Source: Minisyncoccota bacterium
GTDB taxonomy: Bacteria; Patescibacteriota; Minisyncoccia; Phycocordibacterales; UBA9973
Assembly (NCBI GenBank): GCA_035548655.1
Contig: DASZSN010000019.1
Coordinates: forward strand, 15,245 to 79,244
Direction of reading: 5' to 3'
DNA length: 64,000 bases
Below, in pieces: positions 17,250 to 30,894 of the stretch. The stretch's first letter is position 1; every line of letters begins with the position of its first letter. The notes under the pieces were generated by a model. That model did not search any database, was not told the origin of the DNA, and saw only the letters and a list, made by a program, of their open reading frames with translations. The position numbers and the translations under genes are program-made.

Positions 17250-17271
17250 TTTCACTTTAATCCGTACTGCA

Positions 17272-17299
17272 AGAGCTCCGTTTCCGGGGCTCTTTTTTA
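17272..17299 (+). terminator. Rho-independent terminator after 16659-17249
   Basis: GAGCTCCG..CGGGGCTC hairpin followed by TTTTTT. Confidence 0.5.
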
Positions 17300-17300
17300 T

Positions 17301-17328
17301 TTGACAAAAGTGCTCAGTTTGACATAAT
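17301..17328 (+). promoter_or_regulatory. Sigma70-like promoter (TTGACA - 16 bp - CATAAT)
   Basis: TTGACA at 17301-17306 and CATAAT at 17323-17328. A second, similar ATTTGACAAAAG element lies at 17611-17642 upstream of the next small gene. Confidence 0.45.
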
Positions 17329-17356
17329 CGAAACCTAAACACTTCAATCGTTCTTT

Positions 17357-17563
17357 ATGAAAATCATTAAAGATAATATTTCACTTTCGGGGCTACTTAT
17401 GGCCGTTTTGTTTATTTTTTTATTTGGATTGCAGATAAATCCGTCCGACGCAACAGATGACTACTTCGATAATACTCCGTTAAAAAAAGTATCGAGGGGA
17501 AAAATAAAAGACGACAGTGATACCCTGAACGTGCCGCTTCAAAAAGTGGTAGAAAAGAGATGA
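17357..17563 (+). CDS. Small secreted/membrane peptide (68 aa)
   Basis: Hydrophobic N-terminus LSGLLMAVLFIFLFGL with a dedicated promoter and terminator. Confidence 0.3.
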   Translation: MKIIKDNISLSGLLMAVLFIFLFGLQINPSDATDDYFDNTPLKKVSRGKIKDDSDTLNVPLQKVVEKR

Positions 17564-17572
17564 TATCAAAAG

Positions 17573-17594
17573 GAGCTTCGGCTCTTTTTTATTT
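17573..17594 (+). terminator. Rho-independent terminator (GAGC TTCG GCTC + T6)
   Basis: Hairpin and T-run immediately after the stop of the 68-aa ORF. Confidence 0.6.
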
Positions 17595-17659
17595 TCCTGA
17601 CATCATAAAAATTTGACAAAAGAATATTTTTCTGTTTAAATAAAGAAAATCAACACAAC

Positions 17660-17962
17660 ATGTTTTATTTAGAAAACTTGCATAAAAAGTCCCCTAACAA
17701 GAGACTTCTGAACTGGACTTACTTTGCAACATTTGTGACAAAGCAGGACATGGCAAAGATCCATTGTAACGCAGGTTCTATAAAGCAACTTGCGGATCAA
17801 ATAACCGAGGAGTGTAGGAAAAAGGGAATTTCCCCCGCAGAATTCAAGGCAGATCTTCCGGAAAAAGGAAGTATCGATACGAGCAACCACTCATACCCTG
17901 TCACACGAGGTCTCTCTGAAGGAGATATTCGGCAGTTGCTCATGTTTTTGTGCGGCATGTAA
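17660..17962 (+). CDS. Hypothetical protein (100 aa)
   Basis: ORF only, in an AT-rich region. Confidence 0.25.
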   Translation: MFYLENLHKKSPNKRLLNWTYFATFVTKQDMAKIHCNAGSIKQLADQITEECRKKGISPAEFKADLPEKGSIDTSNHSYPVTRGLSEGDIRQLLMFLCGM

Positions 17963-18033
17963 AATTTTTTTCGGTATCCCCGTTGTGGTGATGCCGATTT
18001 TTTATTTATCGATTTGATTGCTATTATGATGCC

Positions 18034-19682: not shown

Positions 19683-21260
19683 CTATTTCTTCACTCCATG
19701 CTTTTCGTGCAATTTTTCTATCTCTTGTCCCTCCAATTCCTCCTTTTTCTCTTTTCCCCTCTCGCCGAGGGCTTTCAGTGCCCCATCAGGCAGACTGTCG
19801 AGTGTTTTGGCGAGTTCGGAGAGGTGTTCGGCAGTGTTTTTCGTCGGATCATTCAGTACCTCCTCAAGAAGCGCGTGCAGGATCCAGCCCATTCGTGGTC
19901 CCGGTTTCATGTGTAACTCCCCTATCAGATATGCGCCGTCGATTGCGAGCTGTCCCACAGAAATAGGATCTCGGAGCGCCTCTTCGATCATCGCGTGATA
20001 TTTTCGAAGTCGATATGGTGCTTCTTTTTTCTTCATTCCCACCCGATCGCATTCCCGAACTTCCATAAGTTCCCATATATGCTCGGGACCGACATTTCGA
20101 ATAATCCGACGCACTGCCGAGAGGGTGATTTTCTCGGTGTCGGAGAAAAACATATGGTTTCTGACAAGTGTTGTTACACGTGTAACCGTTTCACGTGAAA
20201 ATTTAAGCCTTTCGAGGATTGACTTTGCCATTTTTGCTCCGACTACCTCGTGACCAAAAAATGTATATTTATCCTTTGATCTGTCATACCGACGGGTCTT
20301 CGGTTTGCCAATGTCATGGAAAAGCGCCGAAAGTCGAACTTCAAGCGAATACCCCTTGTCGGCCGCATGCTGGAGCGCGTGCACAATGTGTTCAAACACG
20401 TCGTAGATATGGGCGCCTTTTTGCTCACACCCGACCCCCTCCAGAAGCTCTGGAATGACATATTCCAAAAGACCAGTCTTTTGCATCAGACCAAGACCGA
20501 TGCCGGGATTCTTCGAATCAATGATTTTTATAAATTCATCTCGAATTCGCTCCTTCGAAATTTCGTTGAGAAGCTCTTTGTTATCCATAATCGCCCCTAG
20601 TGTTTCATGTGAAATAGCAAAACCAAGTTGTGTGGAAAACCGCACTGCTCGCATCATACGGAGCGCATCCTCTTTGAAGCGATCTGCCGGATTAAGGACA
20701 CTCTGTATAACCTTGTCTTTTATGTCCTTTAAACCGCCAAAAATGTCCTTTATGGCATCTTTTACCGGATCATAGGCGATAGCATTCATCGTAAAGTCCC
20801 TTCTCTCAAGGTCTTTTTCTATGTTTGTTTCATATGAAACCTCGTCGGGATGGCGAAAATCAGTATATTTTCCCTCTGATCGATAGGTTGTTACTTGAGT
20901 TTCTTCAAATGTTTCACCTGAAACGTTTTCATGTGAAACAGGTCTATTAAGCACAGTAACTGTTCCAAATGTGTTTTCATATACAGTCCTTAGATCTTTA
21001 AAGACTTCTTGAACTTGTTCCGGCCTGGCATTTGTTGCTATGTCCCAGTCTTTTGGCACCCTCTCCATTATGAGATCTCTGACACATCCTCCAACCAGCC
21101 ACGCCTCAAAACCGGCGTCTTGAAGGCGCTTTGTTACATGTGAAACAAACGAAGGGATTTTCTTTCTATCAATCACTATGAAGCAATAATAGCATTGTTT
21201 TTCAATTGCAAATAGAAAAAACACCGTATACAATGTATGTACCAATATATGAGTGTTCAA
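19683..21260 (-). CDS. cca: CCA-adding tRNA nucleotidyltransferase with HD domain
   Basis: Pol-beta-type head motifs (GGCVRDLI, DWDIAT), an RxxRxxRF tail motif and the HD motif LFHDIGKPKT. The 5' end of the track ORF is probably too long, since it overlaps the divergent gene 21237-21920. Confidence 0.8.
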   Translation of the reverse strand: MNTHILVHTLYTVFFLFAIEKQCYYCFIVIDRKKIPSFVSHVTKRLQDAGFEAWLVGGCVRDLIMERVPKDWDIATNARPEQVQEVFKDLRTVYENTFGTVTVLNRPVSHENVSGETFEETQVTTYRSEGKYTDFRHPDEVSYETNIEKDLERRDFTMNAIAYDPVKDAIKDIFGGLKDIKDKVIQSVLNPADRFKEDALRMMRAVRFSTQLGFAISHETLGAIMDNKELLNEISKERIRDEFIKIIDSKNPGIGLGLMQKTGLLEYVIPELLEGVGCEQKGAHIYDVFEHIVHALQHAADKGYSLEVRLSALFHDIGKPKTRRYDRSKDKYTFFGHEVVGAKMAKSILERLKFSRETVTRVTTLVRNHMFFSDTEKITLSAVRRIIRNVGPEHIWELMEVRECDRVGMKKKEAPYRLRKYHAMIEEALRDPISVGQLAIDGAYLIGELHMKPGPRMGWILHALLEEVLNDPTKNTAEHLSELAKTLDSLPDGALKALGERGKEKKEELEGQEIEKLHEKHGVKK

Positions 21261-21920
21261 AATAAATTGAGAGCAATAGCGCTTAGAATGGAGGGGTATT
21301 CGTATAGTGAGATAATGAATCAGCTTCCTGTGTCAAAAAGCACCCTTTCCGGGTGGCTTAAGCACATACAACTGACCTCACAACAAGAAGATCTATTGCG
21401 TCAAAAAATCACCGCTCGATCAACCCTAGGCAGAGCGCATGCCGCGACAACAAACCGGAGAAAGCGAGCAGAGAGGGAGGCTATGGTTCTAAAGAGAGCA
21501 AGAGATGTCTTTGATTTGCAACAAAATGACCCGTTTTTCTGTTTTGGGATTTCAATGTATTGGGCGGAAGGCGGAAAGAAGAGTTCCATGTTCCAATTCA
21601 TGAATTCTGATCCGAGAATAATAAAGCTGATGATCCGATGGATCGAAACGTACATGAACGCGTCGAAAGAAAAAGACTTGTTTTTTCGTCTTTATATTCA
21701 CGACGCATACGCCCATGAAAACCGTGAAGAGTTTTGGGCAAAATACCTTGATATTTCAATGGGAAGATTCAAAAAAACGATATATAAACCGACTTCTCAT
21801 TTGGTTAAAAGAGGTCCCGAATATATGGGCTGTATGAGAATTGAGGCCTACAACATAAACTTTTTTTATATGGTACGAGAGTGGCAAAATATGTTGGCAA
21901 ATAAGCTTTCTATGCGGTAG
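21237..21920 (+). CDS. HTH-domain protein of unknown function (227 aa)
   Basis: N-terminal resolvase/sigma-like HTH YSYSEIMNQLPVSKSTLSGWLK. The C-terminal domain is unrecognised. Confidence 0.4.
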   Translation: MYQYMSVQNKLRAIALRMEGYSYSEIMNQLPVSKSTLSGWLKHIQLTSQQEDLLRQKITARSTLGRAHAATTNRRKRAEREAMVLKRARDVFDLQQNDPFFCFGISMYWAEGGKKSSMFQFMNSDPRIIKLMIRWIETYMNASKEKDLFFRLYIHDAYAHENREEFWAKYLDISMGRFKKTIYKPTSHLVKRGPEYMGCMRIEAYNINFFYMVREWQNMLANKLSMR

Positions 21921-21932
21921 TATTACTGGTAC

Positions 21933-22004
21933 GCACCTGTGGTGAAATGGATATCATAAACGACTTCGGATCGTTTGTTGTGGGTTCGAGTCCTGCCAGG
22001 TGCG
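21933..22004 (+). tRNA. tRNA-Arg (anticodon TCG)
   Basis: Manual fold: acceptor GCACCTG/CAGGTGC, D-stem GTGA/TCAT, anticodon stem AACGA/TCGTT with loop CTTCGGA, T-loop TTCGAGT. No encoded CCA. Confidence 0.6.
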
Positions 22005-22045
22005 CATTGGAACTTTTGTACTTAATCTGTATAATTGTTCCACTT

Positions 22046-22116
22046 GCGGTCATAGTTTAGTGGCAGAACGCCTCGTTGCCAACGAGAAGGCTGGATTTCG
22101 ATTATCCATGGCCGCA
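22046..22116 (+). tRNA. tRNA-Gly (anticodon GCC)
   Basis: Manual fold: acceptor GCGGTCA/TGGCCGC, anticodon loop TTGCCAA, T-arm TGGAT TTCGATT ATCCA. No encoded CCA. Confidence 0.7.
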
Positions 22117-22291
22117 CAGAAATGTCTTTTTTGGAAATCCTTTGTTTTCAATAGTTTATTTGGAAACTGTGGATAAACGTGTGTGTAAGTCGGATAAAGG
22201 ACATGACTTTTATGACTGTCTTATTAAAAACGTTATAAAATAAGGATTTTTAAAAGTCATCTTTATTTAGTTTTCACGTGAAACGTCTAGA

Positions 22292-22654
22292 ATGATACGG
22301 ATTTTTACATCAAAAAAACAAGTCCTTGGTCAGTCAGGCGAAAAAGAAGCAGTGCGATTTCTCAAAAAAGAAGGGTTTTCGATCATCGGGCGGAACATTG
22401 CCAACAAATTTGGTGAGATCGACATCGTCGCAAGAAAAAAAGGGGTTACGTACTTTTTTGAAGTAAAAACAGGAAAAGAGGGGAGTTCGATCAGCCCCGC
22501 AGAAAATCTCACAAAACAAAAACTCCGGAAGTTTTTTATTTCCGTTCAACATTATTGTCTGGTCCATGAAGTGAACAATTGCCGGATGCAAGGGATACTC
22601 ATTTTACAAAAGCCGGAAGGCACGTATACTGTCGAGACAATCGAATTATCATAA
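22292..22654 (+). CDS. YraN-family (UPF0102) endonuclease-like protein
   Basis: GEKEAVRFLKKEGFSIIGRN...GEIDIVARK...FFEVKT matches the YraN/UPF0102 pattern. The stop codon directly abuts tRNA-Pro. Confidence 0.65.
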   Translation: MIRIFTSKKQVLGQSGEKEAVRFLKKEGFSIIGRNIANKFGEIDIVARKKGVTYFFEVKTGKEGSSISPAENLTKQKLRKFFISVQHYCLVHEVNNCRMQGILILQKPEGTYTVETIELS

Positions 22655-22728
22655 CGGGCTGTAGTACACCGGTAGTATTCACGATTCGGGTTCGTGAGAA
22701 CTGGGTTCGATTCCCAGCAGCCCGACCA
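22655..22728 (+). tRNA. tRNA-Pro (anticodon CGG), with encoded CCA
   Basis: Acceptor CGGGCTG/CAGCCCG, anticodon loop TTCGGGT, T-arm CTGGG TTCGATT CCCAG, discriminator A plus CCA. Confidence 0.8.
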
Positions 22729-22770
22729 AAAAGACCCTTTTCTCAATCAACTTCTTTATCCTGTAAACAA

Positions 22771-22806
22771 AAGACGCTGACGATGTGTCAGCGTCTTTTG
22801 TCTTTG
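22771..22806. terminator. Bidirectional terminator between convergent tRNA-Pro(CGG) and tRNA-Gly(CCC)
   Basis: A perfect 10-bp stem, AAGACGCTGA/TCAGCGTCTT, followed by TTGTCTTTGTG. Confidence 0.6.
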
Positions 22807-22877
22807 TGCGGGATACGAGAATCGAACTCGTGCCTACTGCTTGGGAAGCAGTCATTCTGCCACTAAACTAATCCCGC
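22807..22877 (-). tRNA. tRNA-Gly (anticodon CCC)
   Basis: Minus-strand fold: acceptor GCGGGAT/ATCCCGC, anticodon loop TTCCCAA, T-arm ACGAG TTCGATT CTCGT. Confidence 0.75.
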
Positions 22878-22961
22878 TTGTGCTCATATCCTAACAGATG
22901 GACAGGCGACGCTCAATTGACTTTCTCCGATAAACGCGTAGTCTGTATGAAAAACAAGTAA

Positions 22962-23324
22962 ATGAAAAAAATTCTTTTGATCTCCATCGACGATGGGATT
23001 TCTAAACAAGGAGTATTTGATGAAATGGACATTGCGGGAATAGATACAAAAATGGTGAAACTTATTTTTGTAGATAATGATATAGAAAATGCAAAGAAGA
23101 AAATCCCCGTATTCATCGCAAAAGGCACCCCTGATCTAATCTGCATAAATGGTGCAATTCCAATCACGGATCTTGAGAAATTACTTCAAAAGATATCAGA
23201 GGTGAAAGAAAAAGACGGCCTTAATTTCCAACTGTATTCCTTGGGTGAACGTCCCGAGAAGAGAAATCTTCTCTTTAAGAACCATTTGCGAGGCTACCCA
23301 GATCTTGCTCTGGTCCAGAGATAG
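22962..23324 (+). CDS. Hypothetical protein (120 aa)
   Basis: An ORF with its own terminator. Confidence 0.35.
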   Translation: MKKILLISIDDGISKQGVFDEMDIAGIDTKMVKLIFVDNDIENAKKKIPVFIAKGTPDLICINGAIPITDLEKLLQKISEVKEKDGLNFQLYSLGERPEKRNLLFKNHLRGYPDLALVQR

Positions 23325-23347
23325 CCCTTTTCAAGAGGGCTTTTTTT
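23322..23347 (+). terminator. Rho-independent terminator (AGCCCT..AGGGCT + T7)
   Basis: Seen at the stop of gene 22962-23324. Confidence 0.65.
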
Positions 23348-23404
23348 ATTTTTCCTTTATAAAAAAAATCTTTTCTGCTACGATACCCAGTACTCCAACA
23401 AGAT

Positions 23405-23475
23405 CGGGCTGTAGTACAGCGGTAGTATGCGCCCATGGGGTGGGTGTGACCCGAGTTCGACTCTCGGCAGCCCGA
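23405..23475 (+). tRNA. tRNA-Pro (anticodon GGG)
   Basis: Acceptor CGGGCTG/CAGCCCG, identical to the Pro(CGG) acceptor; anticodon loop ATGGGGT; T-arm CCGAG TTCGACT CTCGG. Confidence 0.7.
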
Positions 23476-23492
23476 CATCAAAATAATATCTT

Positions 23493-23525
23493 CGGGCTGT
23501 GGTATAACGGCTAACGTGCGTGGTG
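23493..23525 (+). pseudogene. Degenerate 5' tRNA-Pro fragment (acceptor plus D-arm copy without a 3' half)
   Basis: CGGGCTGTGGTATAACGGCTAACGTGCGTGG repeats the acceptor and D-arm of the neighbouring tRNA-Pro genes, but no matching 3' half follows. Confidence 0.35.
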
Positions 23526-23526
23526 G

Positions 23527-23628
23527 GGTTGAATATAAAGTCGGGACGTGGTGTAACGGCTAACATACGTGTTTTGGGTACACGTGACTCCGGGTTCGAA
23601 TCCCGGCGTCCCGACTTTATATTCAACC
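23527..23628. repeat. Perfect 22-bp inverted repeat (GGTTGAATATAAAGTCGGGACG / CGTCCCGACTTTATATTCAACC) enclosing tRNA-Pro(TGG)
   Basis: Left arm 23527-23548, right arm 23607-23628. The inner 7 bp of each arm are the tRNA acceptor stem. Confidence 0.8.
23542..23614 (+). tRNA. tRNA-Pro (anticodon TGG)
   Basis: Acceptor CGGGACG/CGTCCCG, D-arm GTGT AACGGCTA ACAT, anticodon stem CGTGT/ACACG with loop TTTGGGT, T-arm CCGGG TTCGAAT CCCGG. Confidence 0.8.
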
Positions 23629-23658
23629 AGTAGCATGGATATGCTACTGCGACGCAAG

Positions 23659-23692
23659 GCGCGACTCCGGGTTCAAATCACAGAGACCGGCA
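23659..23692 (+). pseudogene. Degenerate 3' tRNA fragment (T-arm-like GACTCCGGGTTCAAATCACAG)
   Basis: Near-copy of the T-arm region of tRNA-Pro(TGG), without a pairing 3' stem or acceptor. Confidence 0.3.
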
Positions 23693-23743
23693 ATCTGCCT
23701 TTTCAAGCGCAGATTTTGATAAAATAACAACAGCTACAAAAAA

Positions 23744-23814
23744 GCGGGATTAGTTTATCGGTAAAATAACAGTTTTCCAAACTGTGGTGAAGGGTTCGAC
23801 TCCCTTATCCCGCA
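23744..23814 (+). tRNA. tRNA-Gly (anticodon TCC)
   Basis: Acceptor GCGGGAT/ATCCCGC, anticodon stem ACAGT/ACTGT with loop TTTCCAA, T-arm AAGGG TTCGACT CCCTT. Confidence 0.8.
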
Positions 23815-23824
23815 CAAAAACAAG

Positions 23825-23862
23825 AGAGTTGGACGCATCGTGTCCGGCTCTTTTGTTTTTTG
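23825..23862. terminator. Bidirectional terminator after tRNA-Gly(TCC)
   Basis: AGAGTTGGACGCATCGTGTCCGGCTCT imperfect hairpin followed by TTTGTTTTTT. The reverse strand also ends in a T-run. Confidence 0.5.
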
Positions 23863-23864
23863 AC

Positions 23865-24008
23865 GGAGGAAGAGAGGCGAACGACGGAGGCGGTATACAA
23901 GATGAGTCCGACAGCTGGCGGACGAATGCTTGTGGCCGAGTCGGGGTCGCGACCTCGCCATAGGCGAGAGTAGTGACCGACTCCCGTATTCCCGCACTCG
24001 AGCATAAA
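23865..24008. ncRNA. Structured intergenic segment, candidate small RNA of undetermined family and strand
   Basis: No credible ORF. It contains nested hairpins (GTCCG ACAGCTGG CGGAC; GAGTCGG ... CTCGCC ATA GGCGAG ... CCGACTC) and is bounded by terminators on both sides. Confidence 0.2.
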
Positions 24009-24031
24009 AATAACCCCTTTTATAAGGGGTT
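24003..24031 (-). terminator. Terminator for minus-strand gene 24049-24393 (AACCCCTT TTAT AAGGGGTT)
   Basis: Perfect 8-bp stem, followed on the minus strand by ATTTTTATG. Confidence 0.55.
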
Positions 24032-24048
24032 GGGATCAATGTAATGGA

Positions 24049-24393
24049 TCATACAAATAAAGTTTTTTTTACTTCTCCATGATCTTTTATCGCCTCGGTT
24101 CCAGTTATGATTTGCTCCGGCGAGACGTGAATGAAGCGAGAGCTCCCGTTCATTATTTTTTTCACCTCAGTCATCGTGGAAGTAATGCGGAGAGCGGGGA
24201 CTTTCTCCTCAAATATGACTGCAACTGGCTTCTTTTCCTTCGCTTTCTCCCTGATAGTTTTTGGAGTTGCATCGTCGTGCATAAAGGTAAGACATGGTCT
24301 TTTGTTTGGGCCATCAAAATAGATTCTTTTGACGTTTTTTTCAAAACCCCTTGCCTCAGCGGGGGAGCAGCTGGTAACAAACAGTAACTTCAT
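24049..24393 (-). CDS. Hypothetical protein (114 aa)
   Basis: ORF only. Confidence 0.35.
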   Translation of the reverse strand: MKLLFVTSCSPAEARGFEKNVKRIYFDGPNKRPCLTFMHDDATPKTIREKAKEKKPVAVIFEEKVPALRITSTMTEVKKIMNGSSRFIHVSPEQIITGTEAIKDHGEVKKTLFV

Positions 24394-24451
24394 AATTTAA
24401 AGAATTTCCGACCATCATAGCGTACTATTGAAAAAAGGCAACTGGTACAAC

Positions 24452-24477
24452 GTAAAAACCCGCCGAAGGGGCGGGTT
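24452..24477 (-). terminator. Terminator for hup (AACCCGCC GAAG GGCGGGTT)
   Basis: Hairpin with a minus-strand T-run. Confidence 0.65.
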
Positions 24478-24498
24478 GTTACGAAGTGGGTGAAAAAA

Positions 24499-24771
24499 TT
24501 ATTTCACGGCGTCCTTGAGTGCCTTCGCGGCGCGGAAGCGCGGTACGCGAGTTGCCGGCACTTTGACCTGCTCACCAGTCTTTGGGTTGCGGGCCATGCG
24601 GGCTGCGCGCGTCTTTACCGAAAAGATACCGAGACCGGCGATGGAAACTTCGCTACCGCTCTTCAAGGTCTTGGTGATTTCTGCGATGATACTCTCCACG
24701 ACCTCCTCAGCTTGCACCTTGGTGCCGCCGATTTTTCCGTGAATCATTTCAACGAGTGCTTGTTTATTCAT
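24499..24771 (-). CDS. hup: DNA-binding protein HU
   Basis: 90 aa, with the GLGIFSV and RNPKTGE motifs characteristic of the HU/IHF family. Confidence 0.9.
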   Translation of the reverse strand: MNKQALVEMIHGKIGGTKVQAEEVVESIIAEITKTLKSGSEVSIAGLGIFSVKTRAARMARNPKTGEQVKVPATRVPRFRAAKALKDAVK

Positions 24772-24885
24772 ATGAAACGAATGGGGGAATCCCCGAATAG
24801 AGCTAATTGATAATGCTCGTCAATGCGCCGGAAGCTACTGCTTTGGGCAAATTCATTATATACCAAGGGTTTTTCGGTGCAAAAT

Positions 24886-24914
24886 TGACAAAAAGCAGTT
24901 TTTGAGTTAGTATA
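24886..24914 (+). promoter_or_regulatory. Sigma70-like promoter (TTGACA - 17 bp - TAGTAT)
   Basis: Upstream of the small ORF 24937-25077. Confidence 0.45.
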
Positions 24915-24936
24915 TTTTCAAATAAAATCCGTTTTA

Positions 24937-25077
24937 TGAAAAAAGTAGCGTACCTTTTGATTGGTTTTTTGACGGTGGGAATCTTTATCGCAATTATTGA
25001 AGCGGTAAAGATTGGGAAGCTGGCAAAAAAACTGAAGAAAGAAATTTCCCTTTGGGAAGAAGCCGCTCGATTATGAG
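24937..25077 (+). CDS. Small membrane peptide (46 aa), below the ORF-track size cutoff
   Basis: MKKVAYLLIGFLTVGIFIAIIEAVKIGKLAKKLKKEISLWEEAARL: one TM segment plus a basic tail, flanked by a promoter and a strong terminator. Confidence 0.3.
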
Positions 25078-25096
25078 CGGCTTTTGTGTTTTTCTA
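25061..25096 (+). terminator. Rho-independent terminator (AAGCCGCTC..AGCGGCTT + T-run)
   Basis: Overlaps the stop codon of the 46-aa ORF. Confidence 0.6.
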
Positions 25097-26077
25097 TTTT
25101 GTCTTTGCGAAACCGGATTCGTACTGGGCAGCGGTCACTTTTCGATAGAAGATATAGCCATAGTCATCTTCGCTGTAGCTGATCCCCTGATCCGCTTCAA
25201 AACGATTTGGACCGATCGGAGTACGCGTCGGAAAGACTGCGTGCTCAGGAATGACGTTTTCGATCTTTTCTTCCCCATTCTCTTCTGAGACATATGTGTA
25301 TCCTTCGTTTGCTCGGGTGTCATTTTGATCACTTTTAGGAACCAGTGACATCACCCACGGCATCTTTTTACTGAAGTTTGGATTTTCTGTCGCAACGGCA
25401 GTGAGTATATCCTCTGATGCCGGTTGCCACCCGCCTTCTTTTTGCATGGCATTGATGATTGCCCCCGCTTTGTTATTATCGTTCTCATTCCCAGAAACCT
25501 TCACGACGCAAACCTCAACCGTCTTGTCGTGGTAGGGAATGAGATAGCGACTCTCGATAGTGACGTTGCCGACTTTTTTTCCTTCCTGAATAGCGGTAAT
25601 TGTTTTGACTCCACCAGCGATTTTTGCTTGCAGTGAATCTGTCGGATCGTTTTTCATTGCCACGACTTTTGCGTCTTTGTGCGAAAGTGAATCTTCGAGA
25701 GTTTTTGCATCCGCCTTGTGTGGTATAGCCATTGCACCGGCAATACCAAACATTGCCGCGACCCTAAGGTACCACGGTTTTTTTCTCTCTTCTTTTGGTC
25801 GTTCGTCTACCCACGATTCGTCCCCCATGCTCTTTTTTTCTTGTGCCGTATCAATAGCATGCTCAACACTGATGCTTTTTTTAATTTGTTTTATCTTTTC
25901 CTGATCAAGGGTGCTCGGTTTTTTATCCGGACGAGACTGCGCCGCGTTTTCAAATATTTCTTCTATTTTTTGCTGTTTTATCTGCTGTTCTTGTGGAGGC
26001 AATTCGCGGTCATCTTCAAATGGTTCCAATTGTTCGTTGGTGGGATTCTCGTATTTCATACGCCCATCATACCACAA
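25094..26077 (-). CDS. Hypothetical single-pass membrane protein (327 aa)
   Basis: Acidic, Lys-rich N-terminus, then TM WYLRVAAMFGIAGAMAI and an extracytoplasmic domain. Sits downstream of, and likely co-transcribed with, the ATPase gene. Confidence 0.4.
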   Translation of the reverse strand: MWYDGRMKYENPTNEQLEPFEDDRELPPQEQQIKQQKIEEIFENAAQSRPDKKPSTLDQEKIKQIKKSISVEHAIDTAQEKKSMGDESWVDERPKEERKKPWYLRVAAMFGIAGAMAIPHKADAKTLEDSLSHKDAKVVAMKNDPTDSLQAKIAGGVKTITAIQEGKKVGNVTIESRYLIPYHDKTVEVCVVKVSGNENDNNKAGAIINAMQKEGGWQPASEDILTAVATENPNFSKKMPWVMSLVPKSDQNDTRANEGYTYVSEENGEEKIENVIPEHAVFPTRTPIGPNRFEADQGISYSEDDYGYIFYRKVTAAQYESGFAKTK

Positions 26078-26101
26078 TCAAAACACCGGCTTGCGTCGGT
26101 G

Positions 26102-28843
26102 TTATTGATATCGTTTCATGATTTCCGCCTCGACTTCTTCACGGGGGCGGCCATAGGTGAGGTACGAGAGCTCTTTTATCTTGTCCGCGATTTCGTTGTT
26201 GCCTTTTGGTGGGGGTGGAATGCGCAGGTTGAACGGCTTTGACGGAACACCGGCGACTAGGATCTTCGCATAGGCATTGAAATTTTCGAGTTTGGTGATG
26301 TCGCTTGCGGTAAAGGTAGGGGCGAGTTGCTTTTCGAACACGTCAGCGTTTTCGGGCGAGACACGATAGATAATCATGTTGCCGACGTTGCCAAACACCG
26401 CATCGCGAATGTTCTCTTGGAGCTGTTCGATGTATTGGTGCGCGACAGTAAGTGAGAGGCGATATTTGCGCGCCTCGGAGAGAATGGTGGCGATAGAATC
26501 AGTCGTGACGTTTTGAAATTCATCGATGTAGAGATAAAAGTCATTGACCTCACCCTTGCCGATGATGTCAACGCGAGAAAGCGCCGCCATCGTGAGCTTG
26601 CCGACAAGTACGAGCCCGATGAGCGCGGAGTTGATATCCCCGAGACGGCCTTTTGAAAGGTTGACGAGCAAAATTTTTCGATTGTCCATGATGTCGCGAA
26701 AGTTGAGCACGCTCTCCTGCTGTGCAATGACCGGACGCATGATCTCGTTTGAGATAAAGACGTCGAACTTGTTGGTGATATAGGGGACAAAGTTTGCAAG
26801 CGACTGTTCACCGGTGGTTTTCTCCGCGTTGCGCCAAAACTGGACGATCACCGGATTTTTGCATTTTGATAGTTTCATTTCGCGAAATGCTTTGTCGGAG
26901 AGGACGCGCCCGATCTCGAGGAGTGTGGAGCCGCTTTCGGGGTCTTCCATCACGAGTCCGGCGGAATTTCGAAAATATTGTTCAAACGCGGGACCGCCGG
27001 CGACTTTCATGTCAAAGAGTTTGTTGAAAATGGCGAGAAGTTCGTTGATGACAAATGTTTTTTGCTCGGGATAGTTCTGATTGTATTCGAGCATGTTCAG
27101 TCCCATCGGTCGCGCGGTGTAGGCGGGATCAAAATAAATGACATCATCGAGTCGCTCCGAGGGGATGTTGGCAAGAATGTCGTCGAGGTCGCTACCGTGC
27201 GGGTCGATAAAGCATACGCCGCGACCGGATTTGATGTCTTGGATCGCCATGTTTTTCATGATCGTCGTTTTGCCGGTACCGGTCTGTCCAATCACATAGC
27301 AGTGACGAACACGATCTTCTTTGCCCAGATAGACATCGGTCGTTTCTCCGCGATGCGTATTGGTGCCGAGAAAGATGCCTTCTTTTGCTTGTTCGATGAG
27401 CGTCTGACCAACCGAGCGCGGTGCGGGAGCGGTAGCGGCAGGAGACTCTTTGAGCTCCGGCGCAACAGTGAGTCCGATGGGGAAATGAAACATGGTGGCA
27501 AGCTCGGCGATGGTGAGCGGGAGTTGTTCGCTTTTGGTGATGGTACGAAAACTAAAGTCATGCGCGAGATCGTTGATACGAGAGGTTTTTACATCGTCCC
27601 ATGCAAGCGCGTTTGATCCGACGAGAGCAAACTGGTTGAAGGAGGATTTGATCGTCGAGAGGATACTCTGCGCGCGCGTGAGTGTCGCGGCGGTCGTGAT
27701 AATGCGAATCCCCGCGGAAAGTGTCGGGCTCTGATGTTTCTTTTTTGCAAGCTCGATACCACGGGTGTCCATTTTCTTCTTTTTTTCTTCTTCGGTTTCT
27801 TCTTTTTCCGATTTGAACAATGAGAGCAGTCCTTTGCCAAAACCTTTGAGAACCCCTTCTACCGCGTCTTCGTAGAGCTCTTTTATCGGACGACCGGTTT
27901 TTTCCGCCGCCTCGATGACCGAGAGGATGAGCTTGTTGCTGTTATCGATATCTCCGCTGATGGTGATTTGAATCGCCGCACCTTCGCCGGCGTGTTCGAG
28001 CTTTGAAAGAGAACCAATGAGTGCCACAAGGGGGTCGTGTTCAAATGTCTCGTCGGTTTGCAATGGAAAAATCGCCGGTTCGGAGAGCTTTGCAACACTC
28101 CCCGAAATGCCGCCGCCATCGGAGGAAAAAATGTTGTAATCATCTGTCGCTTCTTCGATGGTGGCGCCGGGGTAGTACGAGCGGACGAGCTTTTCAAACG
28201 TATCGACGTGCATTCTCGGCACTGATGCAAAAAGATTGATGTCACGACCTTGATTTTGGACCGCAAGTTCGAGTGTGTAGTACATACCCTCCTGCCATCC
28301 GGCCGTCGATGTCATTCCCATATAAAACTGCTTCATCGCTTGAATGAAGCGTTTGAATTCACTCGCTTCGTTTTGATCTTTTGAAAGCGGCGGAAGTGTC
28401 ACCGTAAAGAGTGAGTGATCAAGTTCGCGACCGAGCGGACTTTCTTGCTTGAGACCGGGAATCGCACCAATAGTGTGTAAATACTGGACGAGAAAGCGAT
28501 GAAAATCATCTTCGAGGTGCGGACTGCCGAGCTGGGAGGCGATGTCGAGTGCATTTTTGACGCCCTTTTCGAGCATGATGCCAAAGAGTTCTTCGATTTT
28601 TTTGTCGTGCGCTTCAGGTTTGAGACGAAGCACAATACGCTCGGCTTCGTGAGCGGGAAGTACTGCGGTGTCGTGGAGAAAATCCGCGGCTTCGGCTTTC
28701 GCATACTGATCGACTGCCTCACGAGCGGCTTGCGCCTGCGTCGTGTTTGGTCGTTCTTGAAGAATGTATCTCTTCTGCGCTTCTTTTGAGAGATGCGACA
28801 GTTCTTGCGATGGAGTAGAAAATTTTTCTCCTGGGGGGAGCAT
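26102..28843 (-). CDS. TrwB/TraD/VirD4-like (AAA_10/DUF87-type) P-loop NTPase, 913 aa, no predicted TM
   Basis: Walker A CYVIGQTGTGKTT, CFIDPHGSD and Walker B LYIDEFQNV, with SLTVAHQ downstream. A roughly 450-aa N-terminal extension is unrecognised. Confidence 0.55.
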   Translation of the reverse strand: MLPPGEKFSTPSQELSHLSKEAQKRYILQERPNTTQAQAAREAVDQYAKAEAADFLHDTAVLPAHEAERIVLRLKPEAHDKKIEELFGIMLEKGVKNALDIASQLGSPHLEDDFHRFLVQYLHTIGAIPGLKQESPLGRELDHSLFTVTLPPLSKDQNEASEFKRFIQAMKQFYMGMTSTAGWQEGMYYTLELAVQNQGRDINLFASVPRMHVDTFEKLVRSYYPGATIEEATDDYNIFSSDGGGISGSVAKLSEPAIFPLQTDETFEHDPLVALIGSLSKLEHAGEGAAIQITISGDIDNSNKLILSVIEAAEKTGRPIKELYEDAVEGVLKGFGKGLLSLFKSEKEETEEEKKKKMDTRGIELAKKKHQSPTLSAGIRIITTAATLTRAQSILSTIKSSFNQFALVGSNALAWDDVKTSRINDLAHDFSFRTITKSEQLPLTIAELATMFHFPIGLTVAPELKESPAATAPAPRSVGQTLIEQAKEGIFLGTNTHRGETTDVYLGKEDRVRHCYVIGQTGTGKTTIMKNMAIQDIKSGRGVCFIDPHGSDLDDILANIPSERLDDVIYFDPAYTARPMGLNMLEYNQNYPEQKTFVINELLAIFNKLFDMKVAGGPAFEQYFRNSAGLVMEDPESGSTLLEIGRVLSDKAFREMKLSKCKNPVIVQFWRNAEKTTGEQSLANFVPYITNKFDVFISNEIMRPVIAQQESVLNFRDIMDNRKILLVNLSKGRLGDINSALIGLVLVGKLTMAALSRVDIIGKGEVNDFYLYIDEFQNVTTDSIATILSEARKYRLSLTVAHQYIEQLQENIRDAVFGNVGNMIIYRVSPENADVFEKQLAPTFTASDITKLENFNAYAKILVAGVPSKPFNLRIPPPPKGNNEIADKIKELSYLTYGRPREEVEAEIMKRYQ

Positions 28844-28912
28844 TGGCTAATTATACTGTAGAAAATAAGATTGGGCTTGATTTAATGACTTTATTTAGGT
28901 AAAAGTAATGAT

Positions 28913-29434
28913 ATGTTAGGAAAACTTGTTGAACAGGAACTGCTTGGAAAAGTGAAGAAGGAGATTATGGAGTTTAATGGACTCCATGAAATCAAGACGT
29001 ACCAACCATACAAAACCGCCCTTCAATATGTAAAAAATCACCAGTACGGTGATCCAGAGAAACCGCATCGTTTTTTTCCGAAAAGTTTAATTGGAAAAAT
29101 AAAAGAAAATAAAGAACTTTTTTCAGGAAATGGGGAAGAAAAAATTGCATTTTATACCGCGATTGATTCAATCCTGGACCTCAAACATGGAGTTGACGCA
29201 TTTTTTGAATACAGAAAAAATGCAAAAGAGCCGGTGGTGCGGGTAACATTTGATGTCACGACAAATCCTAGTAAAGATCAGTACAAAGCCGAGGTTATTT
29301 TACTAATTCCATCTGAGGGACTTGATCCATCTGATACGGATTATGAAGATAGGATAGGGGACTACAGTCACCAAATAATTAGTGAGTTATTGACAAAGTT
29401 AGAAAAAAATGCAGAATATAGAAAAATTGACTAA
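28913..29434 (+). CDS. Hypothetical protein (173 aa)
   Basis: ORF only. Confidence 0.35.
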   Translation: MLGKLVEQELLGKVKKEIMEFNGLHEIKTYQPYKTALQYVKNHQYGDPEKPHRFFPKSLIGKIKENKELFSGNGEEKIAFYTAIDSILDLKHGVDAFFEYRKNAKEPVVRVTFDVTTNPSKDQYKAEVILLIPSEGLDPSDTDYEDRIGDYSHQIISELLTKLEKNAEYRKID

Positions 29435-29436
29435 TC

Positions 29437-29721
29437 ATGAAAACAGTAACAAAAAATGAACTTCTGGGGACAGTGGTGACCGATAGTAAGACTGATCACG
29501 TACCCGATCTCGAACTGCTTAAAGAAAAGGAAAGTGAGACCGCTGTAATAAGTGCATTTTGCACGGAGTGCGGCACATATCATGAACTCGCCTTTCCAGA
29601 GGCAGAAAAAATATTTACCGAACTTCAACAACCGTTGGATTTTGAGAATAAATATCTTTTGTTTGGGTCCTGCTCAAATTGCAAAGGACCGAATACATCC
29701 ATTGAGCTGAAAGCTTTTTGA
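29437..29721 (+). CDS. Small zinc-ribbon-like protein (94 aa)
   Basis: Two Cys pairs, CTECG...CSNCKGP. Confidence 0.35.
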   Translation: MKTVTKNELLGTVVTDSKTDHVPDLELLKEKESETAVISAFCTECGTYHELAFPEAEKIFTELQQPLDFENKYLLFGSCSNCKGPNTSIELKAF

Positions 29722-29727
29722 TTTATC

Positions 29728-29752
29728 CCGCCATTCGGCGGGGTTTTGTTAT
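29728..29752 (+). terminator. Rho-independent terminator (CCCGCC ATTC GGCGGG + GTTTTGTT)
   Basis: Seen after the stop at 29721. Confidence 0.6.
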
Positions 29753-29812
29753 TCATTGCGAATGAATCATAAAGTTGCTACCCTATCAGTATTACCATAG
29801 CGCCATATCATT

Positions 29813-30889
29813 ATGATTCTGGAAGACTATAAAAAGAAGATTGAAGACGCAGAGGACGCAACAAAGCCGGCACCACAGCCGACACTCAAAGAGGTTCTTG
29901 CAAATAAGGACAAAAGTGTCTTGTTTGGCGATCTGTTGAAACGAGAAGGGGACACCGACCTTGCCGAGCGAGTCGCAAAAGGAGAACTCAAAGAAGACGA
30001 CATCGCGGCACTTGAAGAGAAGCGCGGCATGTTTGGCAAAGCGATGCAAGAAGCCGAGGTGGTAAAGAGCCTCACCACTCCCGAAGCAGTCAAAGACTTT
30101 GCTCGAAACAACCCCGAATTTGAAAAAATCCTCAACCTCGTCGGACCGGAATCCGCTTCAAAAATCTTTCAAAAGAAAATCGAAGAGATTTCTATCAACG
30201 ATCCTGATCGATTTATGGACCTCTCGAACAGGATGAAAGCAATGCAAAGCTTCAAGAACGGTCAGTTTGCCGATCTCAACAATGAGGTCAGGGATCTCTG
30301 TCTAAAACGAGGTATTGGTGAGAAGCGTTATGCCGCCGCACTTGCAATCGAGGATCCGCGCGAACGAATGAAGGCGATTCACAAAGTGGTCACAGAAAAC
30401 TGGAGCGGTTGGAAAAAAGCGGCAGATTTCTTTACTCTTGGTAGTTGGTCAAGAAAACGCGCCCGCTTCATGGAAATGAAAAAAGACGATATCGATGCGA
30501 CACTTGTACAACTACGACTTCATCAAAACAACGTGGGGGCGATGCTCGCGGGTACGGTTGACGGGAACGAGGAGATGAGAAAGATGTTTGCCGCAGAACT
30601 CACCGCAGGCAAAATCAAAGGGGAACCGAAACTTAGCTTTAAGGACATGAAACAGGAGTTGGAATCACCGGAGAATTACACTGACTTGTGGACAAAACAC
30701 AAGAAAGACAAACTTAAAAATTGGGATACTCTTTCTGATGATAACAAACAAAAAGCTGTCGACAAGTTTATCGGAGAGGCGATTCAAAAATTACTCCAAA
30801 AGTATAAAGGAAAAGAGGGTTCATGGGCACAGTTAATGAAAATAATGATGATGGCCATGATAAAAGGCAATAGAAATAAGTATAATTAA
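29813..30889 (+). CDS. Hypothetical coiled-coil protein (358 aa)
   Basis: ORF only; Lys/Glu-rich. Confidence 0.4.
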   Translation: MILEDYKKKIEDAEDATKPAPQPTLKEVLANKDKSVLFGDLLKREGDTDLAERVAKGELKEDDIAALEEKRGMFGKAMQEAEVVKSLTTPEAVKDFARNNPEFEKILNLVGPESASKIFQKKIEEISINDPDRFMDLSNRMKAMQSFKNGQFADLNNEVRDLCLKRGIGEKRYAAALAIEDPRERMKAIHKVVTENWSGWKKAADFFTLGSWSRKRARFMEMKKDDIDATLVQLRLHQNNVGAMLAGTVDGNEEMRKMFAAELTAGKIKGEPKLSFKDMKQELESPENYTDLWTKHKKDKLKNWDTLSDDNKQKAVDKFIGEAIQKLLQKYKGKEGSWAQLMKIMMMAMIKGNRNKYN

Positions 30890-30894
30890 CCCAT

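Follow-up and report, generated by a model that had tools for sequence, protein, structure and literature searches.

A decayed member of a recurrent nested tRNA-Pro(UGG) duplication in Paceibacteria-like CPR bacteria

In a contig of a Minisyncoccota bacterium (DASZSN010000019.1), a tRNA-Pro(UGG) gene stands between two fragments that resemble parts of a tRNA, and its acceptor stem runs on into a long helix. The locus raises the question of whether one tRNA gene was inserted or duplicated into another copy or whether the arrangement is an unusual processing structure of the precursor, both of which were suggested in a first-pass annotation. The window, i.e., the whole stretch of DNA that was analysed, comprised 64,000 nucleotides. 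Comparison at the level of sequence and predicted folding showed that the locus is a decayed member of a recurrent nested tRNA-Pro(UGG) duplication in Paceibacteria-like CPR bacteria. The preferred reading, to which we give a probability of about 0.5 as a whole, is that the ancestral tRNA-Pro gene contains the duplication in its anticodon loop, that the inner gene would be the working one, that the long helix would make it a separate folding and processing unit, and that the left half would have arisen by template switching.

Organization of the nested tRNA-Pro locus

The features of the locus are listed in Table 1. The inner gene was called by ARAGORN as tRNA-Pro(tgg), a check that the first-pass annotation had proposed, and it matched the Rfam tRNA model over positions 1-71 of 71 with 61.3 bits (gathering threshold 29), so that with its full cloverleaf it passes as a canonical bacterial tRNA gene. 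The sequences on its two sides were found to be the halves of an outer tRNA-Pro split after position 37, with the complete gene between them, which bears out the earlier idea that one copy of a tRNA gene had been inserted or duplicated into another. The outer 5' half consisted of the acceptor strand CGGGCTG, the D-arm, and the 5' strand of the anticodon stem, with GGGG as the last bases, and a direct-repeat search aligned 23492-23522 with the 5' part of the inner tRNA at 84% identity, in agreement with the tRNA fragment annotated directly upstream. This fragment had been described as a duplicate of the neighbouring tRNA-Pro genes; that held for the acceptor strand, which is the one of tRNA-Pro(CGG) and tRNA-Pro(GGG), but not for the D-arm GTATAACGGCTAAC, which is of the sequence type of the inner tRNA. 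The outer 3' half, annotated before as a degenerate T-arm copy and indeed matching the variable-loop and T-arm part of the inner gene, kept the variable loop, the 5' strand of the T-stem, and the T-loop, while the 3' strand of the T-stem and the acceptor strand were gone. With both of these 3' strands lost and positions 38-40 absent, the outer copy of the window does not qualify as a canonical tRNA, and no tRNA was called there by ARAGORN, intron mode included. The insert measured ~135 nt, and the intact gene was separated from the outer fragments by 13 nt and 45 nt, with no ORF between. Since tRNA finders report the inner gene only, such fragments can be mistaken for integration scars.

Table 1. 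Coordinates of the nested tRNA-Pro locus and adjoining features in the window
Feature	Position	Strand	Description	Evidence
tRNA-Pro(GGG)	23405-23475	+	17 nt upstream of the nested unit	ARAGORN; Rfam, 53.3 bits
Outer 5' half	23493-23528	+	decayed tRNA-Pro positions 1-37 plus an extra G38	30/38 identical to inner tRNA
Helix 1, 5' arm	23527-23548	+	GG (outer positions 37-38), 13-nt leader TTGAATATAAAGT, inner 5' acceptor strand CGGGACG	
Inner tRNA-Pro(UGG)	23542-23614	+	73 nt, intact; G37, A73; CCA not encoded	ARAGORN and Rfam
Helix 1, 3' arm	23607-23628	+	inner 3' acceptor strand, A73, 12-nt trailer CTTTATATTCAA, CC	
hp2	23628-23649	+	9-bp hairpin CAGTAGCAT-GGAT-ATGCTACTG, loop GGAT, beginning right at the foot of helix 1	
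hp3	23653-23661	+	3-bp hairpin CGC-AAG-GCG, preceded by GCGA (GTGG in other loci)	
Outer 3' half	23660-23688	+	decayed tRNA-Pro positions about 42-70	23/29 (79%) identical to inner copy
Hairpin AATCTGC...GCAGATT plus TT	23692-23717	+	possible weak terminator of the nested unit	read from sequence

The perfect 22-bp helix annotated as a continuation of the acceptor stem (helix 1) and the 9-bp hairpin behind it (hp2) were both recovered at their annotated places. The arms of helix 1, 22 nt each, were 100% complementary and 58 nt apart in an inverted-repeat search. The helix is composed of the 7-bp acceptor stem and 15 more pairs, -1:73 and -2:+1 among them, and its foot is closed by the outer G37-G38 pairing with CC. 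Folding, which the first-pass annotation had recommended, gave for the 214-nt stretch considered there a free energy of -94.7 kcal/mol and a z-score of -6.5 (200 shuffles). A leader-trailer helix of at least ~20 bp around a mature RNA characterizes the processing stalks of RNase III, and the helix of the window, with 22 perfect pairs, has this form. Perfect flank repeats longer than 10 nt were present in 2 of 244 tRNAs of relatives, namely the window copy and the nested tRNA-Pro of locus L006 (25 bp), and among 295 tRNAs strong leader-trailer duplexes abutting the acceptor stem were confined to the nested tRNA-Pro copies.

Nested loci in other CPR bacteria and conservation of their structures

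The nested layout was common to at least 12 other distinct loci in CPR bacteria (L006, L016, L041, L085, L086, L089, L096, L097, L098, L099, L100, and L106), giving 13 with the window. A simple arrangement in the orthologous clusters, without a conserved stem, would have spoken against the first-pass annotation; most related clusters did contain a plain tRNA-Pro(UGG), but these 12 loci were nested and had the extended stem. The order of the elements was tRNA positions 1-37 plus G, leader, complete tRNA-Pro(UGG), trailer plus CC, hp2, GTGG, hp3, and tRNA positions 41-73, everything from the G to hp3 being the insert, with a size of ~135-190 nt, or ~60-100 nt without the tRNA. The 5' junction was constant, after position 37 with one extra G, and the surviving 3' halves began at position 41.

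The outer copies ranged from identical with the inner copy (37/37 and 33/33 in L089) to decayed as in the window (Table 1). Members of the L089 group occurred in six samples. The 5' segment was identical at 36-37 of 37 positions in L085, L086, L089, L099, and L106, and the 3' segment at 33 of 33 in L089 and L041; L089 and L100 had an outer copy intact save for the anticodon arm. In most loci the outer copy was broken: in the window, L006, L016, L041 (5' half), and L085, L086, L099, and L106 (3' half). A promoter-like box lay ~22 nt before the outer 5' half of L016 and in the same place before the plain tRNA of L015, and this matching spacing indicates that the outer copy is the ancestral gene. 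As judged from a hand reading of the inner and outer alignments, the outer copy of L100 differed from the inner one by compensated changes in the acceptor stem (CGGAGTG/CACTCCG) and the T stem (CAGGG/CCCTG), and the outer T stem of L101 (CCGAG/CTCGG) was likewise compensated. L101 is a second, unrelated nested variant with its junction at 35/36 and neither hp2 nor hp3, and the outer T stem of L098 was chimeric. In both L100 and the window, the inner and outer acceptor stems differed, each being internally compensated, which points to the import of alleles and not to a purely local duplication.

On the host tree the nested loci were scattered among plain ones, with type A and type B genes intermixed, and this scatter counts against the preferred reading. 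The inner tRNA was always of the host's own sequence type. The hp2 sequences were nearly identical across the distant hosts L016, L041, and L106; in L016, a type-A nested locus, hp2 was nearly as in type-B loci, yet both tRNA copies were type A, and this mismatch likewise counts against the preferred reading. Other partial tRNA copies were common in these genomes. The nested pattern had no match in 2.9 million viral contigs, and in 1.3 Mb of sequence from related loci no nested element was found anywhere but at tRNA-Pro. No intron-containing tRNA-Pro was detected by the intron mode of ARAGORN in any of the loci, and Rfam searches at permissive E-values of the window and of the clean example L089 returned the tRNA itself and noise. 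Literature searches yielded no published description of a tRNA nested in a tRNA, and no Rfam family matched the layout.

Helix 1 was present in all 13 nested loci and extended 13-45 bp beyond the 7-bp acceptor stem, while the leader arms of different loci had a median identity of 45%, i.e., were unrelated sequences. The CC facing the outer GG was kept, with TC and GA in their place in two loci. Mismatches of helix 1, counted on the sense strand, were G.T in 17 cases versus A.C in 4; strong transcription of the gene, with a bias for C-to-T changes on the sense strand, could account for this excess. The hp2 of the window was homologous to that of the other nested loci, with 7 of 9 pairs changed on both sides, and the stems seen for hp3 were CGC/GCG, CCC/GGG, TCC/GGG, TTC/GAA, and AAATTT/AAATTT. 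For hp2 and hp3 together, 91.6% of cells were paired, both sides were changed in 10 of 12 pairs, and 0 of 500 shuffles were as good. The helix of the window was perfect despite a divergence of 21% in the outer halves; by our own arithmetic, the probability that 30 free sites would all stay paired at this divergence is ~0.001. When the leader was shuffled in silico, the inner acceptor stem formed with a probability of 0.19 instead of 1.0 in L089, and of 0.85 instead of 0.99 in L100. The covariation is no proof of selection, since template switching can also repair the arms of a hairpin.

Relation to known systems and probable origin

Williams, in 2002, reportedly listed the anticodon loop among the sublocations of integration in tRNA genes. 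Integrating elements leave partial copies of tRNA genes, as in att duplications, the archaeal tRNA gene disruption model (PMC3293823), and tRNA gene fragments (PMC9897764). Like att duplications, the nested loci have an intact tRNA gene flanked by its own fragments, a break in the anticodon loop, and a function rescued by the duplicated sequence. Unlike them, they hold a whole tRNA in a short insert with no integrase or other gene, and they have both 5' and 3' fragments, a conserved helix, and two conserved hairpins. An integrative element at the tRNA gene was rejected on the grounds that no integrase-encoding element lies between the repeats and that the fragments are so close to the gene, without an ORF.

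The bulge-helix-bulge introns of archaeal and eukaryal tRNAs have their canonical site at 37/38. In Patescibacteria, group I introns occur in the anticodon loops of tRNAs (PMC13011429), and the same paper makes no mention of tRNA-Pro or of fragments. The nested loci resemble 37/38 introns in that a structured insert breaks the outer gene one nucleotide downstream of the anticodon, and their host phylum is known for interrupted tRNA genes. They differ in that Rfam gave no hit to a group I core and the predicted fold of the insert shows no bulge-helix-bulge, in that the joined outer halves would be without positions 38-40, and in that the functional gene sits in the insert. A group I intron was discarded: neither Intron_gpI nor any other intron family was found at E-values up to 1-5 in window positions 21500-24500 and in L089, and the insert without the tRNA is small. 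An archaeal-type spliced intron was also discarded, as the predicted folds, by inspection only, consist of a single unbroken helix plus two hairpins and lack a bulge-helix-bulge, and the exons, with the outer 3' half beginning at position 41, are not joinable into a complete tRNA.

In rRNA operons, leader and trailer form processing stalks that are cut by RNase III. The nested loci share with them a double helix of at least 20 bp between the sequences before and after a stable RNA, which encloses this RNA in the precursor; they depart from them in that the helix follows on directly from the acceptor stem, leaving no nucleotide unpaired at the mature ends, and is found only with nested tRNA-Pro copies; its cleavage is putative. 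Another RNA within a tRNA gene is the box C/D RNA encoded in the archaeal tRNA-Trp intron. As in that case, a second functional RNA lies within an anticodon-loop insert, but here this RNA is itself a copy of the host tRNA, and, so far as can be judged from the sequence, the halves of the host gene are not rejoined by splicing. A MITE or TIR transposon was rejected as well, for the terminal inverted repeats, as seen in the leader arms, are not conserved in sequence, no junction duplication exists (positions 38-40 were lost instead), and the element was restricted to the tRNA-Pro locus in the related loci searched.

Replication template switching, which is documented to produce perfect stems (PMC8794818, PMC5453318, PMC10710096), is the probable origin of the left half of the nested layout, and a single switch would suffice. 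The growing strand would come off its template where the proline anticodon loop reads GGG and resume on the opposite strand, at the CC that lies at the base of hp2. From there it would copy the trailer in reverse, followed by the discriminator and the 3' acceptor strand, until it returned to its template at the 5' acceptor strand. The product would contain tRNA positions 1-37, then the trailer in inverted form, and then the gene in full. Up to the GG:CC, leader and trailer are reverse complements, and the helix is continuous with the acceptor stem. Template switching would explain why the helix is unbroken, why GG:CC stands at the junction, and why the layout is restricted to a tRNA whose loop contains GGG. 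The loci would share with template-switch hairpins the perfect stem from an inverted adjacent copy, the GG:CC microhomology, and arms that can be re-homogenized; they would be unlike them in that the event would be coupled to a 37-nt direct duplication, with the return at the acceptor stem, and in that the stem encloses a whole functional gene. Later recombination between the copies and with imported alleles may have held some outer halves identical while others decayed. The template-switch model leaves hp2-GTGG-hp3 and the outer 3' half unexplained, and no pre-duplication ancestral state was found among the loci compared. The general claim that leader and trailer are copies of the outer gene's own flanks was abandoned, as the comparisons were mostly no better than shuffles of AT-rich sequence (69-626 of 2000 shuffles scored as high for L041, L085, L086, L089 (R2), and L106); the trailer comparison of L089 alone was significant (0 of 2000 shuffles), this being the only trailer clearly homologous to a native one.

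Function of the inner gene and competing explanations

In the preferred reading, the inner tRNA would be the gene in use. The outer copy would give no normal tRNA, since positions 38-40 are missing and it has decayed besides in this genome. Helix 1 would isolate the inner tRNA as a folding domain of its own, away from the competing half copies in the transcript. Because -1 is paired with 73, RNase P and RNase Z would be able to complete the ends only after the helix had been opened or cut, most plausibly by a double-strand RNase, e.g., RNase III. Its continuity with the acceptor stem makes helix 1 look more like a by-product of the duplication than a purpose-built stalk, and we infer the roles of helix 1, hp2, and hp3 from sequence. 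If the inner gene is the cell's tRNA-Pro(UGG), the reader of CCA codons, its precursor has -1 and 73 locked in a long helix, a case outside the standard schemes of RNase P and RNase Z. The series of intact to decayed outer copies presents a stepwise interruption of a tRNA gene at the canonical intron position with no splicing machinery, and bears on the origin of interrupted and split tRNA genes. If the template-switch origin is true, one replication error made a stem of 20-45 bp around a functional RNA.

An assembly chimera or a chance palindrome has nothing in its favour beyond the source being a metagenome-assembled genome, and is already refuted. Over 23380-23815 the NCBI MAG contig matched three Logan assemblies of separate runs letter for letter, so that four independent assemblies agree and the nested unit is not an assembly artefact; the odds of a perfect 15-bp extension are ~4^-15 (about 1e-9, our own arithmetic), so helix 1 is not due to chance; and homologous layouts recur at the 12 other loci. 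Scars of integrase-mediated att recombination, or a tandem duplication followed by deletions, with the inverted repeat a coincidence, would make a very improbable origin and are already disfavoured. Partial copies beside tRNA genes are a known signature of integration (PMC9897764, PMC3293823), the anticodon loop is a known sublocation, and partial tRNA copies are common in these genomes; integration, however, moves the 3' (or 5') part of the gene to the distal end of an integrase-encoding element, whereas here both halves flank a gene-free 135-nt insert. Nor does tandem duplication with deletion predict a complementary leader and trailer, yet these were found in every nested locus and only there. 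It is also unlikely that a small non-autonomous mobile insertion entered the anticodon loop of tRNA-Pro with a spare tRNA-Pro by which the host survived. Such an insertion would spread between lineages through a trans-acting nuclease or recombinase, or else by DNA uptake and homologous recombination through the outer halves. The differing inner and outer alleles of L100 and the window, the chimeric T stem of L098, the scattered nested loci with intermixed types, the near-identical hp2 in distant hosts, and the second variant L101 would all fit it. Against it stand the lack of a nuclease, integrase, or transposase in or beside the insert of the window, the invariable location at the orthologous tRNA-Pro locus, terminal repeats without sequence conservation or target-site duplication, the absence from viral contigs, and an inner tRNA that always matches its host.

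It is conceivable, if doubtful, that the whole is a selected composite precursor, a tRNA in a tRNA, in which the outer shell, helix 1, hp2, and hp3 form an RNA device kept by selection that might recruit or order processing enzymes, or leave a two-piece tRNA-like RNA with its own role. The conservation of the helix and both hairpins in structure and not in sequence over 13 loci, the excess of G.T over A.C, the intact outer copies of L100 and L101 with compensated differences, the 100% identity of some outer halves to the inner copy while leader and trailer had diverged, and the clean double cloverleaf of the predicted fold argue for it. On the other hand, most loci have a broken outer copy, the lack of positions 38-40 leaves the shell without an anticodon arm, a plain gene suffices for most relatives, and gene conversion with template switching could give the same patterns without selection. 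We would propose only tentatively that CPR bacteria possess a selected device in which a double-strand cut, made in a helix of 20-45 bp that continues the acceptor stem, allows a tRNA to mature from inside a shell of tRNA shape; with similar reserve, shell, helix, and hairpins may then control the supply of tRNA-Pro(UGG) or persist as a functional two-piece tRNA-like RNA. If true, this would add a new route to those of tRNA biogenesis in bacteria and offer a living example of a tRNA gene becoming interrupted at 37/38.

The organism of the window occurs in the samples SRR12170511, SRR12170516, SRR12170517, and JGI 3300056388. As for the surroundings of the locus, the ORF directly upstream was an orphan, and the nearest YraN was 67% identical to that of the window organism, with no closer orthologous cluster available for comparison. 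The terminator scan placed a terminator at 23323-23341, upstream of tRNA-Pro(GGG), and none between this gene and the nested unit; tRNA-Pro(GGG) is probably the first gene of the transcript that carries the nested unit. The same scan made no call for the hairpin at 23692-23717, which may possibly act as a weak terminator behind the outer 3' half.

Anatomy and recurrence of the nested tRNA-Pro(UGG) unit

The tRNA-Pro(UGG) unit of the window, which lies among seven tRNA genes within 21933-23815, is a duplication of the nested kind, with one helix and two hairpins conserved in structure and an outer copy in decay. A complete inner gene is flanked by two halves of an outer tRNA-Pro copy, so the earlier suggestion in the first-pass annotation that a tRNA had been duplicated into another tRNA copy was correct. 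Outward from the 7-bp acceptor stem of the inner gene, 15 further perfect pairs were formed between leader and trailer (helix 1), in which the discriminator A73 is the partner of position -1, and the trailer's first base that of -2. Two hairpins, hp2 and hp3, lie between the trailer and the outer 3' half. The tRNA, 22-bp helix, 5' fragment, 9-bp hairpin and T-arm copy listed in that annotation were all present at the positions given there, and the predicted fold of the 214-nt stretch was well below the shuffles (z = -6.5). The outer 5' half begins 17 nt after tRNA-Pro(GGG), with which the unit is probably co-transcribed, because the sole upstream terminator found by the terminator scan is located at 23323-23341. 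Since 23380-23815 was identical in the MAG contig CAZMBW010000012.1 (GCA_964564945.1) and in three assemblies from separate sequencing runs, the nested unit is no artefact.

Features of the nested unit and its surroundings (window coordinates unless a comparison locus is named)
Feature	Location	Strand	Remark
Inner tRNA-Pro(UGG)	23542-23614		61.3 bits, Rfam tRNA model
Helix 1, 22-bp inverted repeat	23527-23548 / 23607-23628		repeat search
Outer 5' half, copy of tRNA positions 1-37	23493-23528		30/38 identical to inner gene
hp2, 9-bp hairpin immediately 3' of helix 1	23628-23649
hp3, 3-bp hairpin CGC-AAG-GCG	23653-23661
Outer 3' half, copy of positions ~42-70	23660-23688		23/29 identical
CCA-adding enzyme gene	19683-21176	minus
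HerA/TraG-like ATPase, 913 aa	26102-28843	minus	weak DUF87, T4SS-DNA_transf, TraG-D_C matches
tRNA-tail element copies	L005 776-892; L064 8797-8917; L089 7772-7888 / 7915-8031 / 9077-9194; L074 (4 copies); others

With every tRNA scanned against its own flanks for self-copies and the sequences inspected, the same arrangement was found in three comparison loci (L006, L016 and L041). In metagenomes, a scan for pairs of type-B D-arms (type B being one of two tRNA-Pro(UGG) sequence types) separated by 36-66 nt returned 23 contigs, nine of which were further distinct nested loci (L085, L086, L089, L096, L097, L098, L099, L100 and L106); the others included one different nested variant (L101), one 5' fragment only (L094, tRNA-Pro(CGG)) and three chance matches. 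The shared order consists of outer positions 1-37 plus an extra G, leader x, the complete inner tRNA, trailer y ending in CC, hp2, GTGG, hp3 and outer positions 41-73, with hp3 and/or the 3' half absent in L006, L086 and L096. Both outer halves were identical to the inner gene in L089 (37/37 and 33/33), as were the 5' half in L085, L086 and L106 (37/37) and the 3' half in L041 (33/33). Each outer half of the window was ~79% identical, against up to full identity in other nested loci, and the window locus is therefore a decayed member of a nested family.

The variant L101 (=L102; 948-1100) is an independent nested tRNA-Pro(UGG) from a GC-richer lineage, with an intact outer copy, a compensated outer T stem (CCGAG/CTCGG) and a helix from distal flank parts only; hp2 and hp3 were absent from it. 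Its outer gene is split at 35/36, which in Patescibacteria is reported as the unusual insertion site of group I introns.

Conserved pairing and the condition of the outer copy

By folding of the flanks, helix 1 was recovered in 13 of 13 nested loci, with 13-45 bp added to the acceptor stem; hp2 was recovered in most of them. The leader arms of different loci had a median identity of ~45%. Matching the leaders against the reverse-complemented trailers of the same loci gave 247 Watson-Crick positions, and the transition-type mismatches on the sense strand were 17 G.T versus 4 A.C. In a ten-locus alignment of the hp2-hp3 module, 91.6% of cells were paired and both sides had changed in 10 of 12 pairs; this pairing was matched by 0 of 500 shuffles and fell to 33-56% when the partner was shifted by 1-3 columns. 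Among 295 tRNAs, strong leader-trailer duplexes abutting the acceptor stem occurred only in nested tRNA-Pro copies, the remaining pairing following the permuted-control distribution; a perfect flank inverted repeat >10 nt was confined to two of the 244 tRNAs with flanks, namely the window gene and the tRNA-Pro of L006 (25 bp). Helix 1 of the window was perfect despite 21% divergence of the outer halves; by arithmetic, p is ~0.001 for 30 unconstrained sites to have all stayed paired at this divergence, with the reservation that the divergence may partly pre-date nesting. Since hairpin arms can also be copied anew by template switching, the covariation fits selection and mutation-driven maintenance alike.

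The outer copies ran from fully foldable to broken. Those of L089 and L100 were foldable, the acceptor stem (CGGAGTG/CACTCCG) and T stem (CAGGG/CCCTG) of L100 both being compensated relative to its inner gene. Those of several other loci were broken: the window retained the T-loop and lost the 3' strands, L016 had a deleted D-arm and a 3' half cut in the T stem, L006 and L041 carried an insertion after the 5' acceptor strand, L106 had a mutated T-loop, and L086 had no 3' half. In L099 (1100-1240, minus strand), the T-loop of the outer 3' half holds a ~50-nt insertion, a second level of interruption. Positions 38-40 have given way to the 3' strand of hp3 in every locus, so joined halves would not restore the anticodon arm, and for this reason the outer copy would be dispensable as a tRNA.

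A promoter-like box, TAGCTATAGTATAGT, was present ~22 nt upstream of the outer 5' half in L016 and ~25 nt upstream of the plain tRNA in L015, and a TGnTAnnAT-like box precedes the outer half in the clean metagenome loci. Because this box precedes the outer half as it does the plain gene, the outer copy occupies the original gene's place, with the remainder lying inside its anticodon loop.

Proposed working, origin and spread

The inner tRNA would be the working gene, and helix 1 may set it apart as a folding domain amid the competing half copies in the transcript. When the leader was shuffled in silico, the inner acceptor stem of L089, whose two copies are identical, formed with a probability of 0.19 instead of 1.0; in L100 the value went from 0.99 to 0.85. 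The role of an RNase III-like processing stalk, put forward in the first-pass annotation, is plausible for helix 1. Pairing of -1 with 73 disturbs RNase P site choice, as in the case of tRNA-His, and on this account the continuous 22-bp helix probably needs a double-strand RNase cut or unwinding before RNase P and RNase Z.

Group I introns are a known interruption of Patescibacteria tRNA genes (PMC13011429). The insert was rejected as such an intron because only the tRNA family matched in Rfam, both in the window region and in the clean L089 locus. The bulge-helix-bulge intron motif was absent from the predicted folds. The insert contained no ORF, neither an integrase nor a transposase lay alongside, and a transposon-like insert was rejected on the basis of unconserved terminal repeats and absent target duplication. 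The viral contigs searched gave no match to the nested pattern. The unit belongs to a known kind, in which a rescued gene is surrounded by fragments and duplicates of a tRNA gene, and has an unusual, conserved RNA architecture; no description of a tRNA nested within a tRNA was found in the literature searched.

Replication template switching of the kind proposed here has been documented (PMC5453318, PMC8794818). In a single switch, the growing sense strand would exit the template at the anticodon-loop GGG, pair with the CC where hp2 begins, copy the trailer in reverse, past position 73 and along the 3' acceptor strand, and return to the template at the 5' acceptor strand, yielding tRNA 1-37, G, inverted trailer and complete gene. 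Such a switch would account for the fixed junction, the extra G, the GG:CC helix base, the continuity of helix and acceptor stem, and the restriction to tRNA-Pro, but it leaves hp2-GTGG-hp3 and the outer 3' half unexplained.

Spread of the insert between lineages, for example by uptake of DNA that then recombines within the outer halves, is a live alternative. In L100 the inner and outer copies are different alleles; the window shows this less clearly (inner CGGGACG/CGTCCCG versus outer CGGGCTG), and L098 has a chimeric outer T stem. The tRNA-Pro(UGG) sequences fall into type A (72 nt) and type B (74 nt by ARAGORN, 73 nt to the discriminator), which are clearly different yet share one syntenic slot (L005-L084); the inner gene and both fragments of the window are type B. 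Both copies of L016 are type A, yet its hp2 nearly matches that of L106 and L041, two type-B loci. In a neighbour-joining tree built on the CCA enzyme, the nested loci (window, L006, L016 and L041) were dispersed among plain ones and the two types were intermixed, the latter implying repeated allele replacement at the tRNA-Pro(UGG) locus. Against such spread, no mobility gene is linked to the insert.

The surrounding cluster and other partial tRNA copies

The CCA-adding enzyme gene adjoins the cluster of tRNA genes, which lack an encoded CCA, and this linkage was kept in the 80 related loci. Its relatives, 58-74% identical in 80 genomes, carry the labels Paceibacteria, Nomurabacteria, Parcubacteria or 'uncultured Saccharibacteria', all names within the CPR/Patescibacteria; the protein collection searched contained no closer relative of the window organism. 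The conserved order in relatives was CCA enzyme, tRNA-Arg(UCG), tRNA-Gly(GCC), YraN, tRNA-Pro(UGG) and tRNA-Gly(UCC). A simple tandem tRNA-Pro layout in orthologous clusters, without a conserved extended stem, had been named as the outcome that would speak against an unusual structure; this was not the outcome obtained: most relatives have a single plain tRNA-Pro(UGG), but the nested layout with an extended stem recurs in 12 other distinct loci. Relative to nearly all relatives (L005-L084), the window cluster (22655-23476) has an extra tRNA-Pro(CGG), a minus-strand tRNA-Gly(CCC), tRNA-Pro(GGG) and an orphan 120-aa ORF (22962-23324), which had no Pfam family and matched only itself in 5.8 billion proteins. 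A 111-nt inverted repeat, 73% complementary, is formed by tRNA-Gly(CCC) and tRNA-Gly(UCC), each together with an adjoining terminator-like hairpin (arms 22769-22879 and 23742-23852), and brackets tRNA-Pro(GGG) and the nested region.

Partial tRNA copies of other kinds were also present in these CPR genomes. A structured element of ~110-140 nt, located 3' of tRNA-Gly, tRNA-Pro and tRNA-Arg genes, terminates in an exact copy of the last 18-19 nt of the neighbouring tRNA. It comprises a 9-bp hairpin (GCAAGCAAAC...), a closing helix mimicking the T stem of that tRNA, a conserved TCGAAAG and two further hairpins, with compensatory changes in 23 of 29 predicted pairs. It had no Rfam match; a covariance model from 12 copies found 37 in 1.3 Mb, at times in tandem. 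This model missed 23816-23996 of the window, after tRNA-Gly(UCC), a diverged subtype common to L006, L017 and L060. A different partial copy, covering positions 1 to ~45, lies ~40 nt upstream of a real type-A tRNA-Pro(UGG) in L073 (3532-3625), L075, L077, L080 and L048, and a similar one upstream of tRNA-Gly(UCC) in L076. The copy upstream of type A has an enlarged anticodon loop (e.g. CTATTTAGAGA versus TTTGGGA) and the palindrome AGCATTTAAATGCT at its end, and lacks the T arm and flanking helix.

The region 3' of the tRNA cluster (24049-31000) contains small ORFs with no family assignment, an HU-like gene and the HerA/TraG-like ATPase, and may be a mobile or defence island adjoining tRNA-Gly. 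Low-GC segments were observed at 16001-18000 and 36001-38000 (0.39 and 0.355, in that order) versus a window background of ~0.47.
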